A DNA stretch of 44,713 bases from a virus. The notes under the pieces were generated by a model that was not told the DNA's origin, did no database searches, and saw only the letters and a list, made by a program, of their open reading frames with translations. Positions 1,848-26,328 of this stretch are shown here, in pieces. Each line of letters starts with the position of its first letter. The first letter of the stretch is position 1. A program made the translations under genes and the position numbers. The stretch lies in IMG/VR virus record IMGVR_UViG_3300019458_000012, positions 1-44,713 of that record; one strand, 5' to 3'.

Positions 1848-1859
1848 AGGAAGAAAGCT

Positions 1860-2414: not shown

Positions 2415-2653
2415 TGCCCGCGCCTTTCACTAGGCAAGGTATGCAAGGCCCACGGGGGCTACTCGGAATTCCACCTAGGCGCTTCCGTGAACGCACGCTT
2501 CCAAACCAGAACATAGCCCGCGTAACTCAAGCGGGACTTGAAGTTTGGCGCAGCACCACGCAACCTGAAACGCGGTTTACCCAAGTGGGACTGGAGATTT
2601 GGATCAACTCCGATGACCAATTGAGAAGGCTTGTCAATGTGTATTTCCTGTAG
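2414..2653 (+). CDS. Hypothetical protein, 79 aa, with an internal duplicated motif
   Basis: TGATG overlap with the previous stop. Contains RVTQAGLEVWRS and RFTQVGLEIWIN as a tandem motif. Confidence 0.5.
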   Translation: MPAPFTRQGMQGPRGLLGIPPRRFRERTLPNQNIARVTQAGLEVWRSTTQPETRFTQVGLEIWINSDDQLRRLVNVYFL

Positions 2654-2673
2654 TATATAAGGAAGGTGGAATT

Positions 2674-2907
2674 ATGGAGAAAAGAATGCACCAGCCACAT
2701 ATGTCAATTCTCGATGCTGTGCCTCTTGGCATCATCGCCGCGTCTGCTGCGGATATTATCCCGTCAATCGCCGCAGTATTTGCGATAGCCTGGTATTGCA
2801 TTCTCTTATGGGAGAGCGATACTGTTCGTGGTTTTACTGGCCGGGAAGTCGTTTATGACGATGACGATGACGATGACGATGATCCAGAAGACATGGTAGG
2901 AATTTGA
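2674..2907 (+). CDS. Small membrane protein with poly-Asp C-terminus; candidate holin/antiholin
   Basis: RBS GGAAGGTGGA. Hydrophobic stretch AVPLGIIAASAADIIPSIAAVFAIAWYCILLW. C-terminal DDDDDDDDDPED. Sits immediately upstream of the endolysin. Confidence 0.5.
   Translation: MEKRMHQPHMSILDAVPLGIIAASAADIIPSIAAVFAIAWYCILLWESDTVRGFTGREVVYDDDDDDDDDPEDMVGI
2857..2883 (+). repeat. (GACGAT)x4 + GAT microsatellite encoding nine consecutive Asp
   Basis: gacgatgacgatgacgatgacgatgat read directly inside CDS 2674..2907. Confidence 0.95.
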
Positions 2908-2908
2908 A

Positions 2909-3655
2909 ATGAAAACGTCAAGGCGCGGCCAACAGTTTATTATAGACCATGAAGGTGAAAAGCTTACGGCCTATCATGACGGGGTAGGGGTTTTGACCAT
3001 AGGTATCGGCCACACATCAGATGAAAAATATCCTGTCAAGCGTGGCATGAAGATAACCAGGGCTCAGTCACGCGAAATCTTCGCGCATGACATGTCTGAG
3101 GTCGAGAGGGCAATCAGCGCGATGGTAGTGCCGCAACTCAATGGCAACCAGTACGGCGCTGTTGCCAGCTTGATCCTCAACATTGGTGTCGAAGGGTTCC
3201 GTGGATCGACTGTCCGAAAGCTCATCAACAAAGGCGGCAGCAAGTCCGCGATCACCCGTGCGTTCGGCATGTGGGTAAAGGGCGGCAATCCCAAGCGTGA
3301 AATAGCTGGCCTGGTCAAGAGGCGGGCTGACGAAGCGGCGCTGTACTTCACACCGGCTGAGCTGGGAAAATCCCCTGTTGTGCTTCCGAAGACAGGCAAA
3401 CCTACCCCCCAAATCGAAGAAGCACGGGGAACAAAAGGCAATGTTGCCGAAGGCGGAGACGGAACCTTGGCCGTGCAAACAGGAACTGGCATAACTGGCA
3501 CCGGCGCTGTCGCGGATGTAGTCCGTGATCAAGCTGATCAGCTTTCCTTCGTTGCTTATTATTCAGACATAATCCAGTACGTGGTCATTGCCATGGTAAT
3601 GCTTGGCGTCAGCATTACGTTTTATGGCTTGTACAAGAAATTCAAAGATAAGTAG
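2909..3655 (+). CDS. Endolysin, GH24 (T4 / lambda R type lysozyme) with a C-terminal transmembrane segment
   Basis: N-terminal HEGEKLTAYHDGVGVLTIGIGHT gives the E-x8-D-x5-T catalytic triad of phage lysozymes. C-terminus IIQYVVIAMVMLGVSITFYGLY followed by KKFKDK. Confidence 0.85.
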   Translation: MKTSRRGQQFIIDHEGEKLTAYHDGVGVLTIGIGHTSDEKYPVKRGMKITRAQSREIFAHDMSEVERAISAMVVPQLNGNQYGAVASLILNIGVEGFRGSTVRKLINKGGSKSAITRAFGMWVKGGNPKREIAGLVKRRADEAALYFTPAELGKSPVVLPKTGKPTPQIEEARGTKGNVAEGGDGTLAVQTGTGITGTGAVADVVRDQADQLSFVAYYSDIIQYVVIAMVMLGVSITFYGLYKKFKDK

Positions 3656-3657
3656 CC

Positions 3658-4092
3658 ATGTGGAAGTTCATCACCAGCATAGTAACTGGCGGCCTTGGCA
3701 ACATCTTTGGCGGATACCTTGACTACCGCAACGTGAAGTCCCGGCTTGAAGCTGGCGCCCTTGAACGGTACATGGAAGCTGAGATTGAAACGAACCGGCA
3801 GAAGCTCATGATGAACAAACTTCTCATGGAACATTGGTCAACCAGGTTCATTGTTCCCGGCTTCGCCTTTATCACAATGGCTCACTACGGCGCTGTGGTA
3901 TTGGACAGCATATTCCTGTTCGACTGGAACGTCGCCGCTTTGCCAGGGCCGATTGCCGATTGGGAAGGGCAAATCATTCTGAGCTTCTTCATTGTGGTTC
4001 CGGCCAAAGACTTGCTTACCAAGTGGCTGAACCGTGGACTTGTGTCTAGTGCGATCACAAACGCCAAGTCAATATTTACCCGGAAGAAGTAA
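3658..4092 (+). CDS. Putative holin, three-TM (GTA-holin / DUF3154-like architecture)
   Basis: Gly-rich N-terminus (IVTGGLGNIFGG), a charged helical linker, then HWSTRFIVPGFAFITMAHYGAVVL and GQIILSFFIVVP hydrophobic segments. Directly follows the endolysin. The family assignment is from memory of that family's architecture. Confidence 0.5.
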   Translation: MWKFITSIVTGGLGNIFGGYLDYRNVKSRLEAGALERYMEAEIETNRQKLMMNKLLMEHWSTRFIVPGFAFITMAHYGAVVLDSIFLFDWNVAALPGPIADWEGQIILSFFIVVPAKDLLTKWLNRGLVSSAITNAKSIFTRKK

Positions 4093-5102: not shown

Positions 5103-5480
5103 TCAATCAAAATTGACTATACCCTGTTTTTCTAGTTCAGTCAAATGAAGTTCCAGTTCCGCCATAGCATTCCAGGCTTTCATCTGCTTGTGCTTCAGGC
5201 CGCTTTCCTTGTCCAGGGGAGCGATGGCTTCCTTGAGAAGGTGCCGCCCTTCCGCGTCTGCGTACCGGCCTTCGCCATCCGGCACACTACGCCAGTCCTG
5301 ATCTTCAAACGACACATCGTACTTCTTGGCCCCATAGGCTGACACATCAGCAACGGCCAAGATAGCGCGTGGGAAGTAGCGCATGAAGCCACGGACGACC
5401 GGCGATTTGCCTGCGTCAAACTTTTTTCCTGGTGCGTTCTTGAATTGCTCTGGCAGCATTACTTCTGTATTTCTACCCAT
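5103..5480 (-). CDS. DUF5664-like (dATP/dGTP diphosphohydrolase N-terminal domain-like) protein
   Basis: KFDAGKSP...YGAKKY...DWRSV...RHLLKE...DKESGLKH matches my recollection of the KhDxGK...GaxKY...NW...RHl...DxESGlxH pattern. An alternative start, ATG 5459, would give TAATG coupling to the upstream stop. Confidence 0.5.
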   Translation of the reverse strand: MGRNTEVMLPEQFKNAPGKKFDAGKSPVVRGFMRYFPRAILAVADVSAYGAKKYDVSFEDQDWRSVPDGEGRYADAEGRHLLKEAIAPLDKESGLKHKQMKAWNAMAELELHLTELEKQGIVNFD

Positions 5481-14407: not shown

Positions 14408-14628
14408 TGTGCTCTAGCCTGTCGTAAAAATTGTTTGCGCCACCGGCAATGATCCCGATTTGCTTTTGCGATCTTCTCCAGGCGCCGGTTATGAATGGTA
14501 TTATAGTCACCATCCCTTTCCAGCTTTACAATCCTGGTGTGCCCATTCCTGTCAATCCGTGTGTCCTCTAATGACATGTCAGTAGACAGAAGCCCACGAA
14601 GGCGAAGTGCATCAACTTTAGAACGCAT
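14404..14628 (-). CDS. Hypothetical protein, 74 aa
   Basis: Track ORF starts at 14691. I prefer ATG 14628, which overlaps the upstream stop (TGATG). ATGA overlap with the SNF2 start. Confidence 0.45.
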   Translation of the reverse strand: MRSKVDALRLRGLLSTDMSLEDTRIDRNGHTRIVKLERDGDYNTIHNRRLEKIAKANRDHCRWRKQFLRQARAH

Positions 14629-15299
14629 CAGCGTATCTCCAGCCGTGCAGCACGGGCCAAAAATTCGTGCTTTGCGCGTTTCCAGCCCCATACCTCGAAG
14701 TCTGAGATAAAGGCCGGATCACCAGGGACTGTCCATGCCATCCAAGGAAACTTTGCGGGCTTCAGGATTTTGCTGCGCTCGAATAGCACCATTCCATTGT
14801 CAGCCAATTTGATTGAAGGCGGGAAAGGCAAGCGTAAGTTAAACCGCTTCGCAATGGCCTTCTCAGCCTGATGTTCAATTGGCTTAAACCAGGCTCGGAC
14901 TTCCGGCAGCCCCTTCACGGGCGAAGGCAGGTCAGGCAGCACGTATTCGGCTGCATCGTGCATCAATCCTTCATGCTTGTCTTCTTCCGGAACTAAGTCG
15001 CATACATGGCAACTGTGCTGTGCGACGCTGTAGGGTTCGATACAGTGCCCAGTGAAGCGTACTTTCATTGAAAGCGCATGGGCGATATCTTCAATCTGGA
15101 TGTCTGTTTTCTCCATGTCCAGAGGCCAAGCGGCACCGCCGTTAAAAACTTGAATGCCTCCAGCTTTGAATTGTTCTTCCATTGTCGTGCCATGCAGATC
15201 ATAGGAAGGCGGATATTTCTGTGGCATTTCAACTGGCCCATTGTACATCATTGCCTTATCCTTTTCAACTAATTTATCTGTTTTCCAAAGCCGCTTCAT
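14628..15299 (-). CDS. HD-domain phosphohydrolase (YfbR-like 5'-deoxynucleotidase type), 223 aa
   Basis: RFTGH...YSVAQHS...LMHDAAEYVLPDLPSPVK gives the H...HD...D pattern. TAATG coupling to the upstream gene. Confidence 0.75.
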   Translation of the reverse strand: MKRLWKTDKLVEKDKAMMYNGPVEMPQKYPPSYDLHGTTMEEQFKAGGIQVFNGGAAWPLDMEKTDIQIEDIAHALSMKVRFTGHCIEPYSVAQHSCHVCDLVPEEDKHEGLMHDAAEYVLPDLPSPVKGLPEVRAWFKPIEHQAEKAIAKRFNLRLPFPPSIKLADNGMVLFERSKILKPAKFPWMAWTVPGDPAFISDFEVWGWKRAKHEFLARAARLEIR

Positions 15300-15699: not shown

Positions 15700-17538
15700 A
15701 TGGAAAAATCCGCGCAACATCAGGCAGCACTGAGGTACGCCGAACGAGGAATTCCCGTTTTCCCATGCGTGGAGAACGAGAAAGCTCCTGCCGCCGAAGG
15801 CGGTTTCAAAGCTGCGTCTACAGACCCCGCGCAAATTAACGCCTGGTGGTCCCGTAATCCGAACTTCAACATCGGTTGCAGCCCCCATGCTGCTGGTTGC
15901 TGCGTAATCGACGTTGACGCGCCGGAAGCTATAGATGAACTCGAAATGGTTTATGGAAAGCTTCCGGCGACCTTTACAATCCGTACCCCCAGGGGCGGAT
16001 TGCATATGTGGTACAAGGGTGCTCTGCCGCCATCTTCCAGCAAACTGGTTAAAAAGATTGATACACGAGGAATAGGTTCCTATGTGCTTATGCCCCCCTC
16101 CGTCATCAATGGCGTCTACTACAAGGTCATTGACAAGACGCCTCCGCAGCCGATCCTTGAAGATATTGTTGAGGCGTTGCGGCCAAAGGAAGGCGCTCAA
16201 GGAATTGCCGCGCCGGATCATGTGCAGGATTTGCCAATTGCAATTCAGAGAGGCCGTGACGCCGCGAAGACTTGGCCTAAAGCTGAATGGGGAACCATTG
16301 ACGATACAACCTATGCTCACTGCGCCGAGCTTGCCGACATGGGGCTCAGTGACACAGCGATTTATGATATCATCAAAGAGTGGTATGAGCGAACTGGCAC
16401 AGAAGGTGATTTGGAACGATTGCATACAGTCGCCGCAAGCGGTGTAAAGAACCGTCAGAACGAGGCTGGTGTTTGGGCTGTGCAAGACCCCAAGGTCCAG
16501 TTCGCAAATTTCGAAGGGCAAGTCTATACGGAACCGAGCAAGCCTTCGAAGTATGCGCCGCTGAGTGAAGAAGAACAATCCGCGTTGCCGCCTCCAACCT
16601 GGCTGCTGCCGAATGTTCTGCCTGCTGATCAATTGGTAATGCTCTACGCGCCTAGCAAAGGGTGGAAAACATTTCTCGCCCTGGACTGGGCGATGTGCAT
16701 TGCCTCTGGCAATCCTAAATGGGGTGCCGTCGAAGCTGGTGACGTTGTTTACATCGCAGCCGAGGGTGCGACCGGCATAGGCAAGGTGCGCCGCCCTGCC
16801 TGGAAGCTTTTGCACAATGTTGAGGGTCCGGTGCCATTTCATGTCGTCACCTATATGCCCCACGTTGCTATGGAAGGGCAGATTGCAGAGATGGTCCAGG
16901 CCATCAAGGATAAGCTTGGAGGGCGAAAGGTGCGCCTGCTGGTAGTGGATACCCTTGCCCGCCTCATGGCCGGTCTGGACGAAAGCGGCGCGAAGGATGC
17001 GGGCATCACGGTTGAATGCCTGGAAATGCTAAAGCGTGAGCTTGGCTGCACTGTGCTCTGCCTCCATCACACCGGCAAGGATGCCAACCGAGGCGAGCGC
17101 GGATCGTCTGCGTTGCGTGCTGGCTTCGATAGCGGACTTGAGCTTGTGGCCGATAAAGCCAATGGCACTGCTGAGGTTTGGGCGCGGTGGCACAAGGATG
17201 CCGAAACACCGGCTGTGCCCTGGCATCTGAAAGCTGAACAAATCATGGATAGCATGGCATTCCGTTTTGCTGAGGCAGATGAATTGCCGATTAAAGACCG
17301 GCTGCTGCCTTCCGATGTAGGTTTCGTGCTCCGCACAATGGGAGTGTTTGGCAAAGACAACGCCGTCCCTTATCACACTCTAGTCCCTGGCATCGCAACT
17401 ATGAAATCATGGACCGAGGCCAAGGCAAAGACGGCAATCAAGGCACTGTCGAAGACCGGCAAGCTTCGCGCCTATGAGCTAGAGCCGGGTGGCCCCTACT
17501 GTTTGTCGGAAGGCGCTGAGGAAATTCCATTCGATTGA
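15700..17538 (+). CDS. Bifunctional primase-polymerase (Prim-Pol N-domain) fused to a RepA/DnaB-like (AAA_25-type) NTPase, 612 aa
   Basis: GIPVFPC, CVIDVDAPE, TPRGGLHMWY (prim-pol). YAPSKGWKT P-loop, LLVVDTLARL Walker B, LCLHHTGKD. It is the only + strand gene inside the - block. Confidence 0.9.
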   Translation: MEKSAQHQAALRYAERGIPVFPCVENEKAPAAEGGFKAASTDPAQINAWWSRNPNFNIGCSPHAAGCCVIDVDAPEAIDELEMVYGKLPATFTIRTPRGGLHMWYKGALPPSSSKLVKKIDTRGIGSYVLMPPSVINGVYYKVIDKTPPQPILEDIVEALRPKEGAQGIAAPDHVQDLPIAIQRGRDAAKTWPKAEWGTIDDTTYAHCAELADMGLSDTAIYDIIKEWYERTGTEGDLERLHTVAASGVKNRQNEAGVWAVQDPKVQFANFEGQVYTEPSKPSKYAPLSEEEQSALPPPTWLLPNVLPADQLVMLYAPSKGWKTFLALDWAMCIASGNPKWGAVEAGDVVYIAAEGATGIGKVRRPAWKLLHNVEGPVPFHVVTYMPHVAMEGQIAEMVQAIKDKLGGRKVRLLVVDTLARLMAGLDESGAKDAGITVECLEMLKRELGCTVLCLHHTGKDANRGERGSSALRAGFDSGLELVADKANGTAEVWARWHKDAETPAVPWHLKAEQIMDSMAFRFAEADELPIKDRLLPSDVGFVLRTMGVFGKDNAVPYHTLVPGIATMKSWTEAKAKTAIKALSKTGKLRAYELEPGGPYCLSEGAEEIPFD

Positions 17539-17679
17539 TACCCTTCATATATTCCACCGTACGCGCACACTGGTCTTCCGTCTTTGTGTCTGGCGCAAAT
17601 GTGGATATGACAACTGGTACAGCACGAACATGAGCCGTCCTTAAACATATGCGGATCGTCAATAAAATTGTCTGGTCTT

Positions 17680-18213
17680 CTATAAACCATTGGAATTTAT
17701 CCAAGCATGATCCTGCGCCTGCGCTTTAATGTACGCGATCCTATAATCGTGTGCATCACAAATTCGCCGCAGAATGCTTTTGATTTCCAACAAGGTCTTC
17801 TGCCCGCAATTTGGTTGCCGCCGCAATATGCCTTCCCAATTGGCGAACCCAGCGAACGCCAGTAAATCCCTGATGTTATGAATGTTTTGGTTTGATAAAA
17901 CTATTCTTGTCCTGGTATTCATCCGGATATGGTCTAAAGGGATGCAGTGAATATCAGTCAGGGAAGCACTGCATTTTTTGAACAGTTCAATTATGTTGTC
18001 TGCCTCCGTCAACCGTTGCTGATATCGCGTTTTCTCCAAAGCTATATGATATAGGCGCGATACACTAGACGCACTCAAACTCATAGCCTTCCCGATACTC
18101 AAAAAAGTCGGGGCTGGTTCAAGTTTTCTTACCCACAGAACAAACTTCTCACGCTCATTTAGTGGGGTCTTATGAGTTCCATACTGCATCATAAGGGGTC
18201 TTATGAGTTCCAT
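17680..18213 (-). CDS. Putative transcription factor: sigma-70 region-4-type HTH plus RNAP alpha-CTD-like domain
   Basis: LNEREKFVLWV...SIGKAMSLSASSVSRLYHIALEK for the HTH. LDHIRMNTRTRIVLSNQNIHNIRDLL...QPNCGQKTLLEIKSIL aligns with E. coli alpha-CTD. The true start may be ATG 18192/18189 (MMQYG) because of the 31-bp duplication. Confidence 0.6.
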   Translation of the reverse strand: MELIRPLMMQYGTHKTPLNEREKFVLWVRKLEPAPTFLSIGKAMSLSASSVSRLYHIALEKTRYQQRLTEADNIIELFKKCSASLTDIHCIPLDHIRMNTRTRIVLSNQNIHNIRDLLAFAGFANWEGILRRQPNCGQKTLLEIKSILRRICDAHDYRIAYIKAQAQDHAWINSNGL

Positions 18214-18225
18214 ACTGCATCATAA
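18164..18225. repeat. Perfect 31-bp tandem duplication (2 copies) across a gene junction
   Basis: ggggtcttatgagttccatactgcatcataa at 18164-18194 and again at 18195-18225. Confidence 0.95.
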
Positions 18226-18612
18226 CATGTCCTCCAGCCCTTCTGTGCCGTCGATAGGTTCTTCTGTTGCATCGACGCCCACGTATGGGATCAATGGACT
18301 ATGCCAGATAAGCGAGCGGTGGCCGAATGTGCGCGGGTTTTTGACGCCGCGCGAGTAGCAACGATTGAGCTTGCCTTCCTTCCGCAGATGATTGAGCCCT
18401 ACGGTCACATAGGCGCGGCCAATATCATCAAGCCCAGGCAAGATACGATCCACAAGATTTGTGGTGCCAATGCGCTCCGTATACACCAGCCGCGAAAGCT
18501 CATTGATAACCAGGTGCTTCAAATCCTCCGCCCTTTCAGGCTTCCGAACCCAGTTAGTCCAATGACCTTTCGCAGCCCAGGCTTGAAACTTTGCAGTTTC
18601 AGAGTTTGCCAT
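18220..18612 (-). CDS. Hypothetical protein, 130 aa (possible winged-helix)
   Basis: Start chosen at ATG 18612 (GAGG 6 nt upstream) rather than 18624. Contains RIGTTNLVDRIL HTH-like text. Confidence 0.55.
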   Translation of the reverse strand: MANSETAKFQAWAAKGHWTNWVRKPERAEDLKHLVINELSRLVYTERIGTTNLVDRILPGLDDIGRAYVTVGLNHLRKEGKLNRCYSRGVKNPRTFGHRSLIWHSPLIPYVGVDATEEPIDGTEGLEDML

Positions 18613-19033
18613 TGTAAGCCTCATAAAATGGGATTGCGAGTGAGCGCCGGAAATTCATGTTGGCTGCACCTTTCGCTTCTTTACGTTCTTTGACCAACAC
18701 TTTGAACTTTCTGTCAAAGGTGTTGTGTTTGATCCAGCCACCACAAAGCCTATCGCACAGCTTGATATAATCTCGCTCATACCGGTCTGCAATCGCGTGG
18801 TAAATTTTGCCACGGACGCTATAAGCCTCCGTAGCCTTTTGCGTAAACAATACACGTTGTTCATAATCTGCAATGAGTTCAATGCCACAGTACCAGTCGA
18901 AAACCATGGCATAGCGCACCACCCTGGCCTTGGTTACGGTTGTTTTCTTACCAAAGCGATTATAGAACAACCGCTGTGAACTTTTGCAAAATCCAGCTTC
19001 TTTAAGCTGGCTCAATTTAAGAATGCGAGCCAT
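18599..19033 (-). CDS. Hypothetical protein, 144 aa
   Basis: Start chosen at ATG 19033 (GGAAAGGGAAAG upstream) rather than 19051. Confidence 0.55.
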   Translation of the reverse strand: MARILKLSQLKEAGFCKSSQRLFYNRFGKKTTVTKARVVRYAMVFDWYCGIELIADYEQRVLFTQKATEAYSVRGKIYHAIADRYERDYIKLCDRLCGGWIKHNTFDRKFKVLVKERKEAKGAANMNFRRSLAIPFYEAYNGKL

Positions 19034-19427
19034 CTGTCTTTCCCTTTCCATTGTGATATTTATAGAACGTCCTAGGCTTCTTCCAGCGCCGGTCCGGTGA
19101 CGAATAGAAGTGAGTGTCCAGCAAATTCCAATAGCGGCATTGGCATATGCGAGCTATCGTAAACTTGCGGAATTTGTCATCATCGTATCGGGCAGGATGC
19201 AGCCTTTCGGCCAATGATGCCGTTCCTATCTCTGCACCATCCGGCAACTGTGCCAAGAATTGCTTGATACCCAGGGCGAGCGCCTTCAAACGGTCTGCTT
19301 GCTCCGGCTGTCTTGCATCCCACATGGGTTTCCCTTTGGGATCATTGAAACTATCCTCCAGCAGTTTCGCAACCCAGGGCGGCGAATTAAAGAGAAAGGG
19401 ATCGTAAACCTCAAATGCTTTTCTCAT
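19017..19427 (-). CDS. Hypothetical protein, 136 aa (possible winged-helix; weak paralog of 18220..18612)
   Basis: ATGA overlap with the upstream small ORF. Contains EIGTASLAERL and KKPRTF. Confidence 0.55.
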   Translation of the reverse strand: MRKAFEVYDPFLFNSPPWVAKLLEDSFNDPKGKPMWDARQPEQADRLKALALGIKQFLAQLPDGAEIGTASLAERLHPARYDDDKFRKFTIARICQCRYWNLLDTHFYSSPDRRWKKPRTFYKYHNGKGKTDGSHS

Positions 19428-19573
19428 TTTATCCGTTTTCCTTTCTGCCCCATGGCAAAATCAAACAGGGCTTTTGCCAGCCAATGCAGCATGGGAACAT
19501 TCCATGCCATCCACATAGCACAAGTGGCAGGCGGTTCATAAATTCTTTTGAATATGCGCATCATAAAAATCAT
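19424..19573 (-). CDS. Possible small hydrophobic protein, about 45-49 aa
   Basis: Fills the 108-nt gap. Its stop overlaps the next start (ATGA). Start is uncertain (19573, 19564 or 19561). Confidence 0.3.
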   Translation of the reverse strand: MIFMMRIFKRIYEPPATCAMWMAWNVPMLHWLAKALFDFAMGQKGKRIK

Positions 19574-19850
19574 TTTGTAGTTTCCCGTTGCCGCGAAAGC
19601 TTGGCTTGAATTCAATGATGTTGTCATCAATGATTGCATCCGGTCGATAGCACCTGCTTTTCTGCTGCGGAAAGTATGAGCTTGCCGGATGATAATTCGG
19701 TGCCTTCGGATCAATGTCTTGCGTCTTGCGCTCTATTTCCTCAAAAGCACAGCAGCGCCCTTCCTCAAGCCGCCTAGGCCAGATGGGGAAAAATGAATGC
19801 CACTCTCTTTTGCGATCATATTCTTTATCTGCTTTGTTTCGGCGCTTCAT
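19536..19850 (-). CDS. Hypothetical protein, 104 aa
   Basis: RBS ACGGAG upstream of ATG 19850. Preceded by hairpin/18-mer cassette copy 3. Confidence 0.6.
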   Translation of the reverse strand: MKRRNKADKEYDRKREWHSFFPIWPRRLEEGRCCAFEEIERKTQDIDPKAPNYHPASSYFPQQKSRCYRPDAIIDDNIIEFKPSFRGNGKLQNDFYDAHIQKNL

Positions 19851-19869
19851 CGTCTTACTCCGTTGTCAA

Positions 19870-19917
19870 GATATCACTAGCGATATCCTAATGCCCTGAG
19901 ACATTGCCCCAGGGCAT
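19870..19917 (-). promoter_or_regulatory. Intergenic cassette copy 3: hairpin plus 18-bp quasi-palindrome
   Basis: - strand ATGCCCTG-(11 nt)-CAGGGCAT (19917-19891), then GATATCGCTAGTGATATC (19887-19870), then TTGACAACGGAG and ATG 19850. Confidence 0.6.
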
Positions 19918-19927
19918 AGAGATGCCG

Positions 19928-20275
19928 TTAGTTGAGCACCGCGCCTGCCGGTGCCCGAGAGCCAGCATCCGCTTCCTGCTTTCGCAATACCTCATTAAAG
20001 ATATCGCCGATAGGCCGCGTTGCATCTGCTGGAACATCCTTTTTGCTTTCCGCCAACGCAAAGACGGCAAGGTTACCAAGGATGACTTCACAAGCTGCCC
20101 TCATCCGGTCCAAAGCTCCGACTGCATCCAAAGGCGGCAAGCGCATGACCGAGTTAAGAAAGTCACGCTCTGCTCGCGTGTTTGCTTTCAATTCCGGCGA
20201 GTACCCCGCCGGCATCTTGTCAAACGCTTCATCAGACACGGGCTTATTCATGTCAATTCCGGATAGTGTCTTCAT
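19928..20275 (-). CDS. Hypothetical protein, 115 aa (paralog of 21343..21681)
   Basis: RBS CAGGAGAAAGACT. Shares DFLNSxM ... PIxDxxxxxxxxxA with the paralog. Confidence 0.6.
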   Translation of the reverse strand: MKTLSGIDMNKPVSDEAFDKMPAGYSPELKANTRAERDFLNSVMRLPPLDAVGALDRMRAACEVILGNLAVFALAESKKDVPADATRPIGDIFNEVLRKQEADAGSRAPAGAVLN

Positions 20276-20292
20276 AGTCTTTCTCCTGTTTG

Positions 20293-20919
20293 CTATAATC
20301 CCAGGGCTTCACAATGAAGCCTGGAAACGTAGTCTGCACTTTCGTATTTGGCCGGGAACCGAGAGCGCAAATAAATGCACCAGTCATCCCACAGCGCCTC
20401 ACAACCTCCAGCACGCCGTAGCAATGCCTGGTAGGCAGTAAGATATTCTGCACGCTTGGCAGGGCGAGACCTCTTATAATGCCAAGCACGCAAATAGATA
20501 GGCAGGGCTTTACGTCCCGCCAATACTTTAAAACGATTTACATTGTGACCGTCAATGCAGCCGCCGAGGCCAAAGGCTAGTTGCGTCACAAATCCGCCTT
20601 TGACTAATCCGAGCCCAGGCATAGCGCCAAACATGGCGAGCAGTTCCCGTTCAGCTTGATCCGGATCAGCAGTGCAGGATAATTCCATTGCATCATTATA
20701 GATTGACGCCTTATTGTCCTGCACATGCTGATAGGCATCGCGCTTGAAGCCCCACAAGAATTTGCTTTCGATACCTTCCCGGTCAATATCCTTCATTGCG
20801 CCTGGTACAGTGTCAAGGGATCGCTGCACTGTTGCATATACAAACGTAACAACCCGCGCGAATTCATCCGGGCCGCGCTTGGCATATGCAGCAATTCGAG
20901 GTTGATGACTTTCAAACAT
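20293..20919 (-). CDS. Protein with an endonuclease-III-like helix-hairpin-helix (HhH-GPD-like) motif, 208 aa
   Basis: MPGLGLVKGGFVTQLAFGLGGCIDGHNVNRF aligns by eye with E. coli Nth [31 protein letters not shown], including the Asp. Confidence 0.45.
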   Translation of the reverse strand: MFESHQPRIAAYAKRGPDEFARVVTFVYATVQRSLDTVPGAMKDIDREGIESKFLWGFKRDAYQHVQDNKASIYNDAMELSCTADPDQAERELLAMFGAMPGLGLVKGGFVTQLAFGLGGCIDGHNVNRFKVLAGRKALPIYLRAWHYKRSRPAKRAEYLTAYQALLRRAGGCEALWDDWCIYLRSRFPAKYESADYVSRLHCEALGL

Positions 20920-21112
20920 TTTTCTGCCCCCGGATCAAACTCAAAAGTTCCCTTTCGCTAAAGCCCCCTAGTTGCATTGATGAAAGCCAGAATACGTCAA
21001 CAGGCTTATCCGCATTTGCCACAGCGGCGCGTACGGCTTTTGGAAAGCGATCATATGCCGCCATCTTTTGTTCCGCTCTAAGCTTGCGGCGTGGACTGCT
21101 AACGTCAATCAT
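20912..21112 (-). CDS. Hypothetical protein, 66 aa
   Basis: ATGA coupling at 21109-21112. 8-nt overlap with the downstream start. Confidence 0.5.
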   Translation of the reverse strand: MIDVSSPRRKLRAEQKMAAYDRFPKAVRAAVANADKPVDVFWLSSMQLGGFSERELLSLIRGQKNV

Positions 21113-21285
21113 TGTTTTGCTGCCTTCACAATATGGGCAAAGGGATTAGGGCGGCGCTTGCCTTCGATCCTATTCAGATGCACCCATATGCCTGCCCAAT
21201 ATCCAAACATGGCGAATTTGTATCTGCCCAGGCTATCAATGGCCTTGGCTTCCGCTTCCGCAATGGCTTTCTCTATCGTTTGCAT
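21109..21285 (-). CDS. Hypothetical protein, 58 aa
   Basis: Start moved to ATG 21285, which has AGGAG 5 nt upstream. Sequence MQTIEKAIAEAEAKAIDSLGRYKFAMFGYWAGIW. Confidence 0.5.
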   Translation of the reverse strand: MQTIEKAIAEAEAKAIDSLGRYKFAMFGYWAGIWVHLNRIEGKRRPNPFAHIVKAAKQ

Positions 21286-21342
21286 GTGTGCTCCTAACAG
21301 TTTTGTAAGAGGCAGGATTGCGCCTGCCCCTAGCAAACTTGT

Positions 21343-21681
21343 TTAGTGGACTGTATCGCCTTCCCCAGGCGCGGCATAGCCTTCCGGGGTTGCCGCCGCC
21401 CGTGCTTCAATGCCTTTCAGCAAATCCCGGATAGGGGTGCCGCCCAGGTTCACAGTAGCCTTGCCGGTTTTTGTCGGCAGCATGGACAAAGCGCCCAGCA
21501 TGGCAAGCTTTTCCACAATTGCCGTCAAGGCAGATGACATGCCATTAGCGGCTTGCCCTGCATTCATGATATCAAGGTCCATAAGCGAATTGAGAAAGTC
21601 CTTTCCCAATTGCCTCGACCTGATAACGGCGGGGTTGTCTCTCTTCATGCTTTCGGCTTCAATCTTTTTAAGGTCAATCAT
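21343..21681 (-). CDS. Hypothetical protein, 112 aa (paralog of 19928..20275)
   Basis: Preceded by 75-bp repeat copy A, which supplies its RBS. Confidence 0.6.
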   Translation of the reverse strand: MIDLKKIEAESMKRDNPAVIRSRQLGKDFLNSLMDLDIMNAGQAANGMSSALTAIVEKLAMLGALSMLPTKTGKATVNLGGTPIRDLLKGIEARAAATPEGYAAPGEGDTVH

Positions 21682-21691
21682 AGCTTCATTT

Positions 21692-21766
21692 TCCTGTTAA
21701 ATGATATCACTAGCGATATCGTAAGGCCCATGGGCTTCGAACCCATGGACCTAGCGATCCCGTTAG
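21692..21766 (-). repeat. 75-bp intergenic repeat, copy A (stop, hairpin, 18-mer, RBS)
   Basis: Identical to 22093-22167. Hairpin arms at 21725-21734 / 21742-21751 with a 7-nt loop. 18-mer at 21703-21720. Confidence 0.95.
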
Positions 21767-22083
21767 GCGGCGCGTTCAGCTTTGGCCACGTACTCTCGCA
21801 ACACTGCCAATGAACTGTCATAGGTAGGGATTGAAGGATCAACCTTGGCGAGGCCATTGTTGTCGAGGCCCCGCCCGGCAATGCCGCCCGCAAGCTTCGC
21901 CGCAAACAATGACAGATCAAGGTTTGTCGTATCAGGCCGCCCATAGTGTTCCGAGAAGGACAGCCAATAGCCGACAAGGTAAGAACGCCGTTCAACCGCA
22001 AAGCCTTTCTCTTTTGCTCTGGCAAAAAACTTTTCTGCGTCGTCGGCGGCGGCAAGCAAACGTATTTGATCTTTAAGGTTCAT
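21763..22083 (-). CDS. Hypothetical protein, 106 aa
   Basis: RBS ACAGGAGAA supplied by repeat copy B. Stop TAA lies inside repeat copy A. Confidence 0.6.
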   Translation of the reverse strand: MNLKDQIRLLAAADDAEKFFARAKEKGFAVERRSYLVGYWLSFSEHYGRPDTTNLDLSLFAAKLAGGIAGRGLDNNGLAKVDPSIPTYDSSLAVLREYVAKAERAA

Positions 22084-22092
22084 AGTGCATTC

Positions 22093-22167
22093 TCCTGTTA
22101 AATGATATCACTAGCGATATCGTAAGGCCCATGGGCTTCGAACCCATGGACCTAGCGATCCCGTTAG
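22093..22167 (-). repeat. 75-bp intergenic repeat, copy B
   Basis: Identical to 21692-21766. Hairpin arms at 22126-22135 / 22143-22152. 18-mer at 22104-22121. Confidence 0.95.
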
Positions 22168-22589
22168 TTATAGTGTGAGCCGGTCACAAATCGAATGCCC
22201 ATCTCATTGTCTTTTATCACATCCGCATAGGCTTCAACGGCGGCCATATGCACACTTATTGACTGCGTATGAACATTGTGTATTTTGCTATACCAGAGTC
22301 TTGCACCACCCGGCCAATGCTTTGTATAACCCAGGGCAAGCAATTGCTTTCCGGCTTTTGTGTTCAAGCGGACTTCCGGCGCATGTACCCAGGCGAAGCC
22401 GCAATCGAAGCCGCGCTCGTTCTCAGGCGGTAGCTTTGCATCCGCTGCATTTGCAGCAACTTCTGCGGCCCATCCCATGAATGCTTTCTCACTGATCAAT
22501 CCGCCTGATACGGCAAATATGATATAACTGTTAGCGCCGGTGGCAGATGAATGCCCCCAAACGCCGCCGTTGTCTTTCGCATGGCCCAT
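22164..22589 (-). CDS. Hypothetical protein, 141 aa
   Basis: Start moved to ATG 22589 (ACAGGAGA 7 nt upstream). Contains the GFDCGFAWVHAP motif, not recognised. Confidence 0.6.
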   Translation of the reverse strand: MGHAKDNGGVWGHSSATGANSYIIFAVSGGLISEKAFMGWAAEVAANAADAKLPPENERGFDCGFAWVHAPEVRLNTKAGKQLLALGYTKHWPGGARLWYSKIHNVHTQSISVHMAAVEAYADVIKDNEMGIRFVTGSHYN

Positions 22590-22620
22590 AATCAATCTCC
22601 TGTCTGTCATGGTCACCTGG

Positions 22621-22650
22621 TATATAAGCACGAAATGATCCCAATGTCAA
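22621..22650 (-). promoter_or_regulatory. Sigma-70-like promoter (TTGACA-18-TATATA) overlapped by a TACCAGGT operator-like site
   Basis: - strand TTGACATTGGGATCATTTCGTGCTTATATACCAGGTGACC. -35 at 22650-22645, -10 at 22626-22621. Confidence 0.5.
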
Positions 22651-22721
22651 ATTAGGACTATATTCCTGCCTCTCTGTTACACTGATAAACTATACTATAC
22701 TAACACCCCTAAAGGGGGTGT

Positions 22722-22758
22722 ATAGTAATAGCAGTATAGCAGAATAGCAGAATAGAAA
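22722..22758. repeat. 8-bp iterons: ATAGCAG(t/a) x3 with degenerate flanking units
   Basis: atagta atagcagt atagcaga atagcaga atagaaa read directly. Adjacent hairpin ACACCCC-taaag-GGGGTGT at 22703-22721. Confidence 0.85.
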
Positions 22759-22766
22759 ACTAAGGT

Positions 22767-22813
22767 AGTCGAATGTTGGCTTATGCCCTGCCCCTGAGAG
22801 ACAGCATTCGACT
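22767..22813. other. 12-bp stem / 23-nt loop hairpin in the noncoding island
   Basis: AGTCGAATGTTG (22767-22778) pairs with CAGCATTCGACT (22802-22813). One position is G-U on the + strand RNA and A-C on the - strand RNA. Confidence 0.7.
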
Positions 22814-22958
22814 GGCCTAGTTCACTATCGGATCACGCATTGCAGCTTGCCGCATACTACGATAGCATAGGCAACGTTGTCATGGTGAAGTGTCAAAGGA
22901 TTGCTTCCGATGGGTTGAGAGCGTCTTACAATGTGAATGATCATCGGTATTGATCCCG

Positions 22959-23135
22959 CTAAGAGGGTTGCGTTGCCAGGGCGGCAAGCTTGGCGCGGCG
23001 CGTTATATCCCTGGGCTTAATTACAGTAGCTGCACCCTCGGCAACTTTGGGAGGGCAACGCTTGATCACTGCCCCCCTGGCCAATTGCTCCAAAGCTTCA
23101 TGGGTTGCCTGCTTGTCTGGTGTAACATTTGTCAT
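22959..23135 (-). CDS. Small hypothetical protein, 58 aa (below the ORF-track cutoff)
   Basis: Hand translation gives MTNVTPDKQATHEALEQLARGAVIKRCPPKVAEGAATVIKPRDITRRAKLAALATQPS. AGGAG 8 nt upstream of ATG 23135. Confidence 0.5.
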   Translation of the reverse strand: MTNVTPDKQATHEALEQLARGAVIKRCPPKVAEGAATVIKPRDITRRAKLAALATQPS

Positions 23136-23198
23136 CTTATATACTCCTGTTGAGATTGAGCGGCGAAGCCACCATTGGCCACGCCGCCAGGTAAAATG

Positions 23199-23483
23199 TT
23201 AACGTGCATTCATCTCCGCGTGAACCTCAGTTTTGAGCTTTGCGGCGAGCTCACGCAATGCCAGAGCGGCGGCAACGTATTGTCCGCGCCGGTAAACGTG
23301 GCCGGTCATCTCGTTTGCAGCCTTGATCATTGCGGTAGGTGTATAAGCGCGATTGGCTTTGATCCCTGTTTTAGCATAAAGCTCAAGGGCAGATGCAATC
23401 ACGATAGCCCGATAGGCATTGACGCCTTTTGGACCAGCGAAGACAGCGCCGCCGTCTTCTTTTTCTCTAATCTCATTGTACAT
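23199..23483 (-). CDS. First early gene, hypothetical protein, 94 aa
   Basis: First ORF of the - strand block, next to the divergent control region. GGAG upstream. Confidence 0.6.
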   Translation of the reverse strand: MYNEIREKEDGGAVFAGPKGVNAYRAIVIASALELYAKTGIKANRAYTPTAMIKAANEMTGHVYRRGQYVAAALALRELAAKLKTEVHAEMNAR

Positions 23484-23521
23484 TTTACTAGCTCCAGGGC
23501 TTGATTACCCTCCCCATTACG

Positions 23522-23562
23522 TACCAGGTAAACATTAACAAATCGTTAACGTCTACCAGGTA
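23522..23562. promoter_or_regulatory. Two TACCAGGTA near-palindromic repeats, 32 bp apart (operator-like)
   Basis: taccaggta at 23522-23530 and 23554-23562. An 8/9 copy sits at 22615-22622 over the promoter -10/start region. Confidence 0.45.
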
Positions 23563-23734
23563 GCACGCTATTCCTCTATCTCTTGGCTTATTCATCGTTA
23601 GCTTATATACGTGCTGCCTGGTGCATAAATGTAGGTCATCAATGGCAACGTTGCAGGATGCACGAATAACGCATGATGACAGCGTATATAAGAGGCGCGT
23701 TATCAATTGAATATAAATGTAATCAACAAAGACC

Positions 23735-23753
23735 GGGGTGGGGTGGGGGTGGG
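23735..23753 (+). other. G-quadruplex-forming motif G4-T-G4-T-G5-T-G3
   Basis: ggggtggggtgggggtggg read directly: four G-runs with single-T loops. Confidence 0.8.
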
Positions 23754-23851
23754 CACCGGCAGCACGCACATAAATCGCAACCGTACCCCCCAAAATTTTT
23801 CGCGCCGGTCTAAAAAGTGCTTAACTTATATACATGCACGTCACTTAAATT

Positions 23852-23914
23852 TTCCCGAACGAGATGTTTTTGCTCCTGGGGCGACATTTGATGACAATTG
23901 TTCCCGAACGGGAA
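23852..23914. promoter_or_regulatory. TTCCCGAACG direct repeat; the second copy forms the palindrome TTCCCGAACGGGAA
   Basis: Copies at 23852-23861 and 23901-23910. The palindrome at 23901-23914 lies 28 bp upstream of the late -35. Confidence 0.45.
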
Positions 23915-23941
23915 AGTGGGTCTTCCCAAATTTTTCCGGGG

Positions 23942-23970
23942 TTGACATTAGCATTCAGGCGTATTAGTGT
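23942..23970 (+). promoter_or_regulatory. Sigma-70-like late promoter (TTGACA-17-TAGTGT) abutting the terS start
   Basis: -35 at 23942-23947, -10 at 23965-23970. ATG 23977 lies 7 nt after the -10. Confidence 0.45.
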
Positions 23971-23976
23971 GTGGGC

Positions 23977-24573
23977 ATGAACCGTATCTCCCGAATACCA
24001 GAGGAAGTTGTTGAAGACCATGGACCGGCGATGCTCGACCTCACCGAGCCGCAGCGGATGTTCGTGCTTCACTACATGAATTCAGGTGGCGTCAACGCCG
24101 CTGAGGCCGCACGGAAAGCGGGCTACGGCAATTCGCAGGAAACTCAGGCGGTCTCGGCGTCTCGTATGCTGCGGCAACCTCGCATATTGGCCGCGTTGCG
24201 GGAAGTTGCGGACCATCGCTTGAAGTCTGGTGCCATCCTCGCTGCTTCCGCCATCGTCGAAATTGCAAACGATCCTATGCATCGTGATCGCTTCAAAGCG
24301 GCCACGGAACTTTTGAACCGCGCGGGCCTAGTCGTTGAGACAGTGAGCCGGGTCATCACTGAGGATCATCGCACTGTCGAAGAAGTAGAACGGCGCGTGC
24401 GTGATCTTGCAGTGCGGGTGGGCATCGATCCTGAGAAGCTGCTTGGCAACTTCAAGGTCGTTGATGCGGAAGTGGTTGAACTGGACGAAGCTGTTGACGT
24501 GCTGCACCAGGCCGGTGATAACTGGCAGAGGGAACAGCAGGACTTTGATGCGATACTGGAGAGAAGCGAATGA
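23977..24573 (+). CDS. terS: Terminase small subunit (Terminase_2-like), 198 aa
   Basis: LTEPQRMFVLHYMNSGGVNAAEAARKAGYGNSQETQAVSASRMLRQPRILAAL matches the F..EY...N...A...AGYS...A...LL pattern. Upstream of terL. Track start is GTG 23971; I prefer ATG 23977. Confidence 0.8.
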   Translation: MNRISRIPEEVVEDHGPAMLDLTEPQRMFVLHYMNSGGVNAAEAARKAGYGNSQETQAVSASRMLRQPRILAALREVADHRLKSGAILAASAIVEIANDPMHRDRFKAATELLNRAGLVVETVSRVITEDHRTVEEVERRVRDLAVRVGIDPEKLLGNFKVVDAEVVELDEAVDVLHQAGDNWQREQQDFDAILERSE

Positions 24574-24701
24574 TCAGGAACCTTGTTTGGAATATCTATT
24601 GGTACGTGCCCCTGCCTGCGATAGTGGCTGGAAGGCTGTTGATCTATTGGATCAATCATACACCAAAGGAAGAATGGGAAGAAGCGAATGAGCAAGATTG
24701 A
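24570..24701 (+). CDS. Possible small membrane peptide, 43 aa
   Basis: ATGA overlap with the terS stop. Sequence MIRNLVWNIYWYVPLPAIVAGRLLIYWINHTPKEEWEEANEQD. A second 21-aa hydrophobic ORF (MSKIDILLLMLVALVVLRTYL) lies at 24688-24753. Confidence 0.3.
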   Translation: MIRNLVWNIYWYVPLPAIVAGRLLIYWINHTPKEEWEEANEQD

Positions 24702-24780
24702 TATTTTACTCTTGATGCTTGTAGCGCTGGTTGTGTTGAGAACATATCTATAGGTTATTGTGATGGAGGGTTTATAGGTT

Positions 24781-26328
24781 ATGGTGTCTATGGCTGACTA
24801 TAAGGAACGCTTCACTGACGAGCAGAAGGCCAAGCTATTGCGGGCGCATGACCTTGACCCGAAGAATGACGAGTTGAAAAAGAAACGCGCTCTCATTGCG
24901 TTGGAGGAACAACTGTTGTCCGTTGAGAAGCGGATGACGGAGAACCGCATCCTCTACTACAAGCCGTATGCGAAACAGATGGAATTCCACATGAACGGTG
25001 CGGCCTATCCGGAGCGCCTGTTGATGGCAGCGAACCGAGTTGGTAAAACTATGTGCGGCGGTGCCGAGATTGCATATCACTTGACCGGCCTGTATCCCGA
25101 CTGGTGGCTTGGTCGCCGATATAATCGTCCGGTGCGCGGTTGGGCTGCTGGTGTAACCGGAGAAAGCACGCGTGACGTTATCCAGAAGATGCTCATTGGC
25201 ACAAAGGCGGACGGGTGGGGCACTGGCATGATCCCGAAGCACTGCCTGTCGAAGGACAAGATGAGCCTCGCACGCGGCGTGGCCGACTTGCTTGACACTG
25301 TCCTCGTGAAGCATGTCTCAGGCGGCTGGTCAGAATTGAAGTTCAAGTCCTACGAGCGCGGCCAGGAAAAATGGCAGGGCGACACACTGGACTTCGTGTG
25401 GTTCGACGAAGAACCGCCGCTTGACATTTACATCGAAGGCTACACCCGTATCCTCACCACGGGCGGCTTTGTCATGCTGACCTTTACACCACTGCAAGGC
25501 CGGTCGGAAGTTGTTGACCGCTTCTTGAAGGAAGCGAACAATCCATATCGCATTGTCACGAGCATGACGCTCGATGATGCGGATCACTTCACGGAGGAAG
25601 TGAAACAGCAGGCTATTGACGCTTGGCCGGAACATGAGAAGGAAGCGCGGGCGCGAGGCATACCTACCCTTGGAGGCGGGCGCATCTTCGACATTCCTGA
25701 GAGCCAGGTTGAATGCGAACCATTTGATATACCGAAACATTGGGCGCTCATATGGGGAATGGACTACGGCGTTGAACATCCATTCGCCGCTGTGGCTCAT
25801 GCGTGGGACAAGGACACGGATACGGTCTACGTCTTCCATTGCTTGAAGATGAAGGATGCATTGCCAGTCCAGCATTCAGTTGCGATGAAGTCAATCCTGA
25901 ACAACAGCGGTGGACTGATCCCCGTTGCATGGCCGCATGACGTAAACCAGCGCCGCGAGTTCGAAGGCGAGTTGATCCCGTTGAAGAACATCTACAAGAA
26001 ATGCGGATTGAAGATGCTCGACCAACATGCCCAGTTTCCCGATGGCGGCAACTCGACTGAGATTGGTGTTCTCCAGATGTATGAGCGCATGAAGACGAAC
26101 CGCTGGAAAGTCTTCAAGGGTGGCTCCTGTTCCATCTGGTGGGAGGAATACCGGCGATACCATCGCGTAGATGGGAAGATCAACAAGGTGTTCGACGATC
26201 TTATGTCCGCGTCCCGGCAGGCCGCTATGATGATCCGCAAAGCCGCGCCTGTCCTGTGGCCCCAGTATGTAAACTCAAGGGGTGGAAATGCAGGCATAGC
26301 GAAGGATGTTGACATTTCGCCTTGGTGA
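24781..26328 (+). CDS. terL: Terminase large subunit, 515 aa
   Basis: Walker A ANRVGKT, Walker B DFVWFDEEP, C-terminal nuclease region IWGMDYG. GGAGGG RBS. Confidence 0.9.
   Translation: MVSMADYKERFTDEQKAKLLRAHDLDPKNDELKKKRALIALEEQLLSVEKRMTENRILYYKPYAKQMEFHMNGAAYPERLLMAANRVGKTMCGGAEIAYHLTGLYPDWWLGRRYNRPVRGWAAGVTGESTRDVIQKMLIGTKADGWGTGMIPKHCLSKDKMSLARGVADLLDTVLVKHVSGGWSELKFKSYERGQEKWQGDTLDFVWFDEEPPLDIYIEGYTRILTTGGFVMLTFTPLQGRSEVVDRFLKEANNPYRIVTSMTLDDADHFTEEVKQQAIDAWPEHEKEARARGIPTLGGGRIFDIPESQVECEPFDIPKHWALIWGMDYGVEHPFAAVAHAWDKDTDTVYVFHCLKMKDALPVQHSVAMKSILNNSGGLIPVAWPHDVNQRREFEGELIPLKNIYKKCGLKMLDQHAQFPDGGNSTEIGVLQMYERMKTNRWKVFKGGSCSIWWEEYRRYHRVDGKINKVFDDLMSASRQAAMMIRKAAPVLWPQYVNSRGGNAGIAKDVDISPW

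Follow-up and report, generated by a model that had tools for sequence, protein, structure and literature searches.

A phage protein joining sigma region 4-like and alpha-CTD-like domains is a divergent member of a recurrent fusion family

The window analysed here is the whole 44,713-nucleotide stretch of IMG/VR virus record IMGVR_UViG_3300019458_000012, the DNA of a podovirus. One of its minus-strand genes (Table 1) encodes a protein in which a helix-turn-helix (HTH) domain resembling region 4 (R4) of sigma-70 is joined to a domain resembling the alpha subunit's C-terminal domain (CTD) in RNA polymerase (RNAP). Its domain and profile matches place this fusion protein, as a divergent member, in a fusion family that recurs on phage DNA, has yet to be characterised, derives from primary sigma and RpoA and probably controls transcription. 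For the window protein itself we tentatively propose, with a probability of about 45%, that it is a bipartite, sequence-specific DNA-binding regulator of the phage's own promoters, likely an early-to-late switch.

The fusion gene is a single intact open reading frame (ORF), whose translation carries exactly the peptide stretches quoted in a preliminary description of the window; both halves thus lie on one polypeptide, as had been described. Pfam returned two matches only, to Sigma70_r4 (PF04545; E 2.7e-4, range 2.5-2.7e-4; 20.8-20.9 bits) and to RNA_pol_A_CTD (PF03118; E 8.6e-4, or about 8e-4; 19.4-19.6 bits), in agreement with the N- and C-terminal assignments made previously, each under its gathering cut-off (24.1 and 23.8 bits, respectively). 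A phmmer search of all PDB sequences returned RNAP alpha or alpha-CTD chains only, with E of about 0.05, and reproduced the alpha-CTD alignment drawn in the preliminary description. Taken singly, these Pfam and PDB signals are weak, and it is the relatives that make the domain case. Regions 4.1 (LNEREKFVL) and 4.2 are both present in the R4-like domain. A complete sigma factor was rejected because Pfam finds no Sigma70_r2, the defining region 2, in the protein, where only 11-18 residues precede region 4. A true RpoA was rejected because the alpha N-terminal domain (NTD) is absent: Pfam gives no RNA_pol_A_bac or RNA_pol_L match, and the protein reaches only 18.9 with the NCBIfam rpoA model, whose cut-off is 227.8. 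A small terminase was also rejected, the window having a separate terS at 23971-24573. PHROGs hold no family for the fusion protein, and no family matches its C-terminal tail.

Table 1. Positions of the fusion gene, its encoded segments and the associated regulatory elements in the window (aa, amino acids)
Feature	Position	Strand	Detail
Sigma-R4/alpha-CTD fusion ORF	17680..18213	(-)	intact, 177 aa + stop
Sigma-70 region-4-like HTH domain	18031..18162	(-)	aa 18-61; Pfam PF04545, AlphaFold2, Foldseek
Linker	17944..18030	(-)	aa 62-90; modelled as an extension of the recognition helix, lower confidence
RNAP alpha-CTD-like (helix-hairpin-helix)2 domain	17767..17943	(-)	aa 91-149; Pfam PF03118, PDB phmmer, Foldseek
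C-terminal tail	17683..17766	(-)	aa 150-177; low-confidence predicted helix, model confidence (pLDDT) about 60
Exact 31-bp tandem duplication	18164-18194 + 18195-18225		covers the upstream gene's stop codon and the beginning of the fusion gene
Three intergenic cassettes	19840-19960, 21673-21793, 22074-22194	(-)	in the leftward small-gene operon
Candidate target region, inferred	23793..23947	(+)	directly upstream of the small-terminase gene opening the late operon

An exhaustive phmmer search of 1.84 billion representatives found P0002 with E 9.2e-7, aligned over query residues 6-144, across both domains. This nearest relative found lies above both Pfam cut-offs (Sigma70_r4, 28.4 bits; RNA_pol_A_CTD, 59.9 bits). 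The exhaustive HMMER scan also yielded P0004, with region 4 and three alpha-CTD repeats, and a four-sequence profile led to some 30 more clusters (at 90% identity) for which the precomputed Pfam annotation gives PF04545 and PF03118 in the same order, several of them with an additional N-terminal HTH_17 domain. The 24 members aligned (168-298 aa) all match both Pfam families, and eight carry the HTH_17 domain, which is of the excisionase/MerR type. Searched against the PDB, the family profile matched the B. subtilis alpha-CTD with E 3e-27 and SigA region 4 with E 2e-22. When a family hidden Markov model (HMM) was built without the window protein, the fusion ORF alone was matched among the 425 six-frame ORFs of the window (E 9.8e-8), in one alignment spanning both domains; with P0002 also removed, E was 2e-5. 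The domain pair is therefore not unique to this phage, being carried by about 30 protein clusters in phage or prophage contigs. Within the family the window protein is the most divergent member (15-27% identity) and has the shortest linker.

Surveyed in other phages, the domain pair recurs in phage or prophage neighbourhoods, as found in all seven of the Logan, ENA and JGI neighbourhoods with informative genes. In the prophage L006, which has integrase and CI/Cro genes, the family gene lies a few small ORFs before terS and TerL, and in L008 it lies just before a 144-aa ORF and TerL. L001 has AAA_24 and YqaJ genes; L009 has an integrase with YqaJ, RecT and replication genes; L005 has a portal gene and many small genes; L007 has TerL, portal and capsid genes; and L010 has integrase, TerL and portal genes. 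An unannotated faecal-phage contig, MT835636 (L002), encodes a 332-aa ORF with HTH_17, R4 and alpha-CTD domains, and two further short contigs, one of them L014, were uninformative on context. L014 itself holds, at 1605-3759, two adjacent paralogous sigma-R4/alpha-CTD genes, one with three alpha-CTD repeats, and a separate 1031-aa protein found in the exhaustive HMMER scan, P0003, is made up of eleven alpha-CTD repeats in tandem. Evidently, alpha-CTD modules recur in several architectures that are still unexplored.

Searches of annotated phage collections returned little. With three family members as tblastn queries against GenBank phages (50,697 records), two-domain matches were obtained only in uncultured faecal contigs, the other matches being host rpoA/rpoD contamination or plain sigma factors; one apparent phage alpha-CTD match (L003) was an ordinary rpoA followed by rplQ and was rejected as host contamination. 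Neither megablast of the 8 kb around the gene nor tblastn of the window protein gave a match in GenBank phages, a word-indexed homologue search returned the window protein itself only and, with a two-sequence profile, the two inputs only, and no relatives came from pattern scans of IMG/VR that used the fusion profile or the PrimPol protein. The six-frame ORFs of the window contain no second copy of the fusion gene by the family HMM. The earlier statement that no characterised phage regulator is known to have this domain pair is upheld: Pfam, NCBIfam and PHROG contain no model dedicated to the fusion, no paper on a sigma-R4/alpha-CTD fusion was found in the literature, and no cultured phage with the described fusion was found.

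The structure of the fusion protein was predicted with AlphaFold. A single-sequence model was poor (predicted local distance difference test score, pLDDT, 54) and unusable, while AlphaFold2 with the 24-sequence family alignment gave both domains at pLDDT 90-98 (sigma-R4-like domain, 96-98; alpha-CTD-like domain, 90-97). Foldseek matched the sigma half to 1ku7_A (root-mean-square deviation, rmsd, 1.9 Å over 56 aa), 7vpd_S (template modelling score, TM, 0.83), 3n97_A/D and 1rio_H, and the alpha half to 1lb2_E, 3k4g, 3n97_B and 9zum. The predicted alpha half superposes on 1lb2_E with rmsd 1.9 Å over 62 aa and TM 0.73, which agrees with the alpha-CTD fold expected from the preliminary description. 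The small size of each domain keeps the E-values modest (0.04 to 1); the most probable matches were alpha-CTD and sigma-R4 chains, including both partners of the 3N97 complex.

Residues involved in promoter contacts were compared between the window protein and the 24 aligned family members, using E. coli sigma-70 and alpha numbering. The five sigma residues that read the -35 hexamer are kept by most of the family (R584, 22/24; E585, 22/24; R586, 23/24; R588, 22/24; Q589, 21/24) and are A, S, S, S and R, respectively, in the window protein, where the recognition helix reads SASSVSRL against SRERVRQI in the rest of the family. K593 (19/24) is replaced with Ile and R596 (19/24) with Glu, and K597 (20/24) is retained. 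Several family members also keep the sigma-70 C-terminal tail RKLRHPSR, a patch that in sigma-70 contacts alpha-CTD. In the alpha-CTD-like half, the window protein retains the equivalents of R265 (22/24), N294 (21/24) and G296 (24/24) and has Lys at K/R298 (18/24), as the preliminary description had noted; S/T299 (22/24) is Thr, and N268 (23/24) is Ile. Val stands at C269 and Arg at the E261 position, and this domain contains a 5-residue insertion (FANWE region). The linker between the sigma R599 and alpha R265 equivalents is 37 residues long, within a family range of 34-145 aa (median about 64).

Because its -35-reading residues are replaced, the window protein is not a faithful -35 mimic, and since the recognition helix has lost the TTGACA-reading residues, its sequence specificity should be phage-specific rather than -35-like. 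On this comparison it is best seen as re-specified, a derivative of the promoter-reading heads that no longer copies them faithfully. The earlier idea that it mimics two promoter-recognition modules of host RNAP holds in that both domains are present and fails at the -35 contacts and N268, which leaves promoter-recognition mimicry by this protein a weak proposition.

An exact direct repeat of 123 nt at the termini (1-123 = 44591-44713) indicates that the phage genome in the window, about 44.6 kb, is complete, either with terminal redundancy or as a circular assembly. The phage is a podovirus with a T7-like structural module of portal, major head, tail and internal virion proteins, and its other genes encode TerS, TerL, a family-A DNA polymerase, a helicase, exonucleases, a single-stranded DNA-binding protein and a PrimPol-helicase. 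By portal similarity its closest relatives are Manatee Spring podovirus (53%), the Ralstonia phages RpY1/DU_RP_II (46%) and Burkholderia BcepC6B (36%), placing it by sequence in the BPP-1-like group. About 40 ORFs, including every ORF of at least 184 aa, were scanned against Pfam and/or PHROGs, about 27 shorter ORFs being left out; among those scanned, no RNAP or sigma match, nor any region 2, was found besides the fusion gene, in line with the earlier remark that the genome encodes no RNA polymerase.

Two nucleotide-pool enzymes were observed elsewhere in this genome, a MazZ-like dATP/dGTP diphosphohydrolase domain (5103-5480, minus strand; PF18909, E 1.7e-16) and an HD-type dNMP phosphatase (14628-15299, minus strand; phrog_318, E 1e-48). 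In 2-aminoadenine (Z-genome) phages, enzymes of this sort occur together with PurZ. The window showed no PurZ-like ORF, and the two enzymes may hint at some DNA base modification.

The fusion gene closes a leftward series of small genes, of unknown function, that overlap or lie close together, an operon that would be early, judged by position; it converges on and abuts the PrimPol-helicase gene. Its guanine-plus-cytosine (GC) content is 44%, or 49% at third codon positions; the genome has 51.8%, and its replication and structural genes have 52-55%. The low GC content, together with the absence of the gene from the closest phage relatives, is consistent with horizontal acquisition.

The 31-bp tandem duplication affects the start of the gene. 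Without it, the fusion gene would begin ATGATGCAG (MMQYGTHK...), with an ATG that shares bases with the TGA ending the upstream gene (18220-18624, minus strand); the duplication breaks this ancestral ATGA stop/start overlap. The first copy now yields a 17-codon dead-end decoy ORF (MMQYGTHKTPYDAVWNS, then a stop). The ATG at 18213 is brought into frame, and the ATGs at 18192 and 18189 stay possible starts, for proteins of 170 and 169 aa, so that the duplication leaves the true N-terminus ambiguous. The public database copy of the window protein, P0001, which comes from a contig of 44,731 bp, is the 169-aa form beginning at the last ATG. Neither domain is touched by the duplication, which could be a recent expression-lowering mutation or an assembly artefact.

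A candidate target for the fusion protein lies upstream of terS. The only three AAATTTTYC tracts of the genome, at 23793, 23847 and 23928, are found there, and the same approximately 150 bp contain two TTCCCGAACG repeats and a perfect TTGACA at 23942 with a weak -10. The terS start codon may lie at or near the transcription start, giving a transcript with no leader or a very short one. Scanning 17000-24800 for sigma-70 promoters and terminators gave no excess of sites over shuffled sequence. Between the leftward small-gene operon and the rightward late operon lie also a short tandem AGCAG(T/A)AT repeat run (22720-22760) and a G-rich tract, GGGGTGGGGTGGGGGTGGG (23736-23756). Two small unlisted minus-strand genes of about 58 and 95 aa, with starts near 23133 and 23487, seem by eye to be present.

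The preliminary description had suggested conserved 18-mer cassettes as an example of where the fusion protein could act. The 18-mer, GATATCACTAGCGATATC, occurs at 19870, 21703 and 22104, against 0.01 occurrences expected, and the cassettes are genuine. Read on the coding strand, each is composed of a ATCGCTAG box, a stem-loop and the quasi-palindromic 18-mer GATATCGCTAGTGATATC, followed by a ribosome-binding site and a start codon. Stem changes from copy to copy are compensatory, and the loop GGTTCGAAGCC is similar to a tRNA T-arm. Two of the copies form near-identical repeats of 80 nt; searching the cassette region for tRNAs and Rfam families returned nothing. Nothing ties these quasi-palindromes, set beside a conserved stem-loop just upstream of ribosome-binding sites, to the fusion protein. 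Candidate roles are a promoter/operator, an RNA processing site or a translational element, and a dimeric repressor or an RNA hairpin would be at least as good a fit to the palindrome.

In the mechanism we propose, the sigma-70 region-4 HTH would read the major groove of its target, and the alpha-CTD-type helix-hairpin-helix domain would bind the minor groove of A/T-rich DNA through the R265/N294/G296/K298 equivalents. Joined by a linker of about 37 residues, these two modules derived from host transcription would occupy a bipartite site on phage regulatory DNA, and the bound protein would then modulate the host RNAP on which this RNAP-less podovirus appears to depend, turning on the rightward late operon for packaging and structural genes. 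We infer DNA binding, the target site, the direction of regulation and any RNAP contact from this combination of features. The early-to-late reading is suggested by the position of the gene at the close of a leftward operon that is early by position, and by the L006 and L008 homologues, which occupy a late-activator slot of the RinA/ArpU type; the altered recognition helix points to a phage-specific target.

Several observations weigh against this proposal. With all five -35-reading residues changed (R-E-R-x-R-Q to A-S-S-x-S-R) and alpha N268 replaced with Ile, DNA binding is itself a prediction. Both Pfam scores fall just short of the gathering cut-offs, and the high-confidence structural model depends on the family alignment and so is not independent of it. 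The AAATTTTYC pattern was picked post hoc, with three matches against 1.4 expected genome-wide, so that only the clustering is unusual. The fusion gene lies 5.8 kb from terS (about 23971, plus strand), on the opposite strand and outside the late-activator slot, and the L001 and L009 homologues lie among recombination genes. The family HMM found no homologue among the six-frame ORFs of MW202898, RpY1 and BcepC6B; as these closest structural relatives of the phage lack one, the fusion protein is not core to the programme of this phage type.

Among known systems, the fusion shares its two folds with the 3N97 complex, in which alpha-CTD and sigma R4 sit side by side on UP/-35 DNA (see also 1LB2 and 1KU7). 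In the predicted model, the C-terminal half resembles 3n97_B and 1lb2_E at about 2 Å, and the N-terminal half resembles 3n97_A/D and 1ku7_A. Unlike that complex, the fusion is one free polypeptide that lacks the alpha-NTD as well as sigma regions 2 and 3; other residues stand in place of the -35 readers and of N268, whereas the alpha R265, N294, G296 and K298 equivalents are kept. With its own family, represented by P0002, P0021, P0057 and the MT835636.1 ORF, the window protein shares the domain order, the linker and carriage by phages, but it lacks SRERVRQI and the N-terminal extension or HTH_17 domain and has the 5-residue alpha-CTD insertion.

Other phage systems resemble it in part. Phage T4, which has no RNAP, uses AsiA and MotA to retarget the host polymerase at the sigma-R4/-35 interface. 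Their folds are unrelated to the fusion, and AsiA and MotA bind sigma, whereas it is sigma R4 and alpha-CTD themselves that the fusion resembles. Phage alpha-CTD proteins that stand alone, such as Bacillus phage vB_BmeM-Goe8 gp5 (annotated 'RNA polymerase subunit alpha') and matches in BFVD, have an alpha-CTD-like C-terminal domain without an alpha-NTD; they lack the sigma-R4 domain and are likewise uncharacterised. The fusion is best filed with known phage-encoded transcription regulators built on sigma-like HTH domains. RinA, ArpU, LtrC and Alt are small late regulators of temperate phages, some of them sigma-region-4-like, whose genes lie at the end of the early/replication block and which activate the terS-led late operon (PMC3152322, PMC3753634). 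The likeness to these late regulators lies in the L006 and L008 homologues, which take the slot just upstream of the terminase genes. None of the four has an alpha-CTD, the window gene at 17680-18213 (-) does not adjoin terS at about 23971 (+), and neither the window protein nor the 24 members matched the RinA, ArpU or LtrC families in Pfam or PHROG at E <= 1e-3.

A broader proposal for the family, which we consider doubtful though arguable, is that phages have repeatedly captured primary-sigma region 4 and alpha-CTD and joined them as a free-standing 'UP/-35 reader' at the interface of promoter DNA and RNAP, where it would mask -35/UP promoters or replace sigma R4 on the beta-flap; the window protein would then be a re-specified version directed at phage-specific sites.

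Of the specific alternatives, the one that survives best, while still somewhat unlikely, is that the protein is an occluder or decoy that shuts off promoters, either by occupying UP/-35 DNA or by titrating factors that dock on sigma R4 or alpha-CTD. A single chain would here reproduce the pairing of alpha-CTD on the proximal UP subsite with sigma R4 on the -35 hexamer. Its targets would be -35/UP-dependent host or early-phage promoters, and the outcome would resemble that of T4 AsiA, reached from the DNA side. In its favour, R584, E585, R586, R588 and Q589 are kept in 21-23 and K593, R596 and K597 in 19-20 of the 24 members, the alpha 265 determinant is strongly conserved family-wide, and several members keep the RKLRHPSR patch that contacts alpha-CTD. 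Both halves of the predicted model match 3N97 chains, and the late promoter region of the phage offers an A/T tract and a perfect TTGACA. The window protein, however, has lost every -35 contact and N268, so that the argument fits the family and not this protein. Isolated sigma R4 and alpha-CTD are also weak DNA binders, and several homologues sit beside terminase genes in temperate prophages, a position typical of activators.

That the fusion protein is instead a DNA-binding accessory of replication, recombination or excision, its modules serving as generic DNA binders, we regard as improbable. The HTH_17 domains of eight aligned members, the AAA_24, YqaJ and RecT genes around the L001 and L009 homologues, and the PrimPol-helicase gene abutting the window gene are what such a role would lead one to expect. 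The specific source of both modules is nevertheless the part of RNAP that recognises promoters, and in most members the residues contacting promoters are still present; late regulators, too, are commonly found at the end of replication modules.

Slightly less probable again is sigma appropriation, in which the R4-like domain would dock on the beta-flap tip of host RNAP, displace region 4 of sigma and so change the upstream specificity of the holoenzyme, the alpha-CTD-like domain serving as an extra DNA anchor. The presence of regions 4.1 and 4.2 supplies a whole flap-binding unit, a new element of the -35 type would go with the altered recognition helix, and no phage RNAP or sigma was detected among the ORFs scanned. 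The RNAP contact in this reading is, however, hypothetical, and no AsiA-like factor that would displace host region 4 was identified. Chance resemblance of a generic HTH and a generic helix-hairpin-helix, or a decaying gene, to which the sub-threshold Pfam scores, the disturbed gene start and the 44% GC content might point, is very improbable and on these comparisons largely refuted, given two independent domain matches arranged in the order seen in a family with members above both cut-offs, the leave-one-out HMM match and the intact ORF.

A bipartite regulator of the phage's own promoters is thus the reading we put forward. Phages without an RNAP must redirect the host enzyme, as is done by AsiA/MotA, gp55/gp33, Q, RinA-type activators and the inhibitors Gp2 and P7; to our knowledge, the modes of redirection described are few and come mostly from model phages. 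If the proposal is correct, soluble reuse of sigma R4 and alpha-CTD by phages would be a new type of regulator, and if family members act as free-standing UP/-35 readers, they would represent a mode of host-transcription takeover not described before. The family is easy to test, being made of small proteins with two well-understood folds, and would offer a natural experiment on the cooperation of sigma R4 and alpha-CTD on DNA. The family with its -35 and UP contacts and the window protein with its rewritten recognition helix would form a matched pair for studies of specificity.

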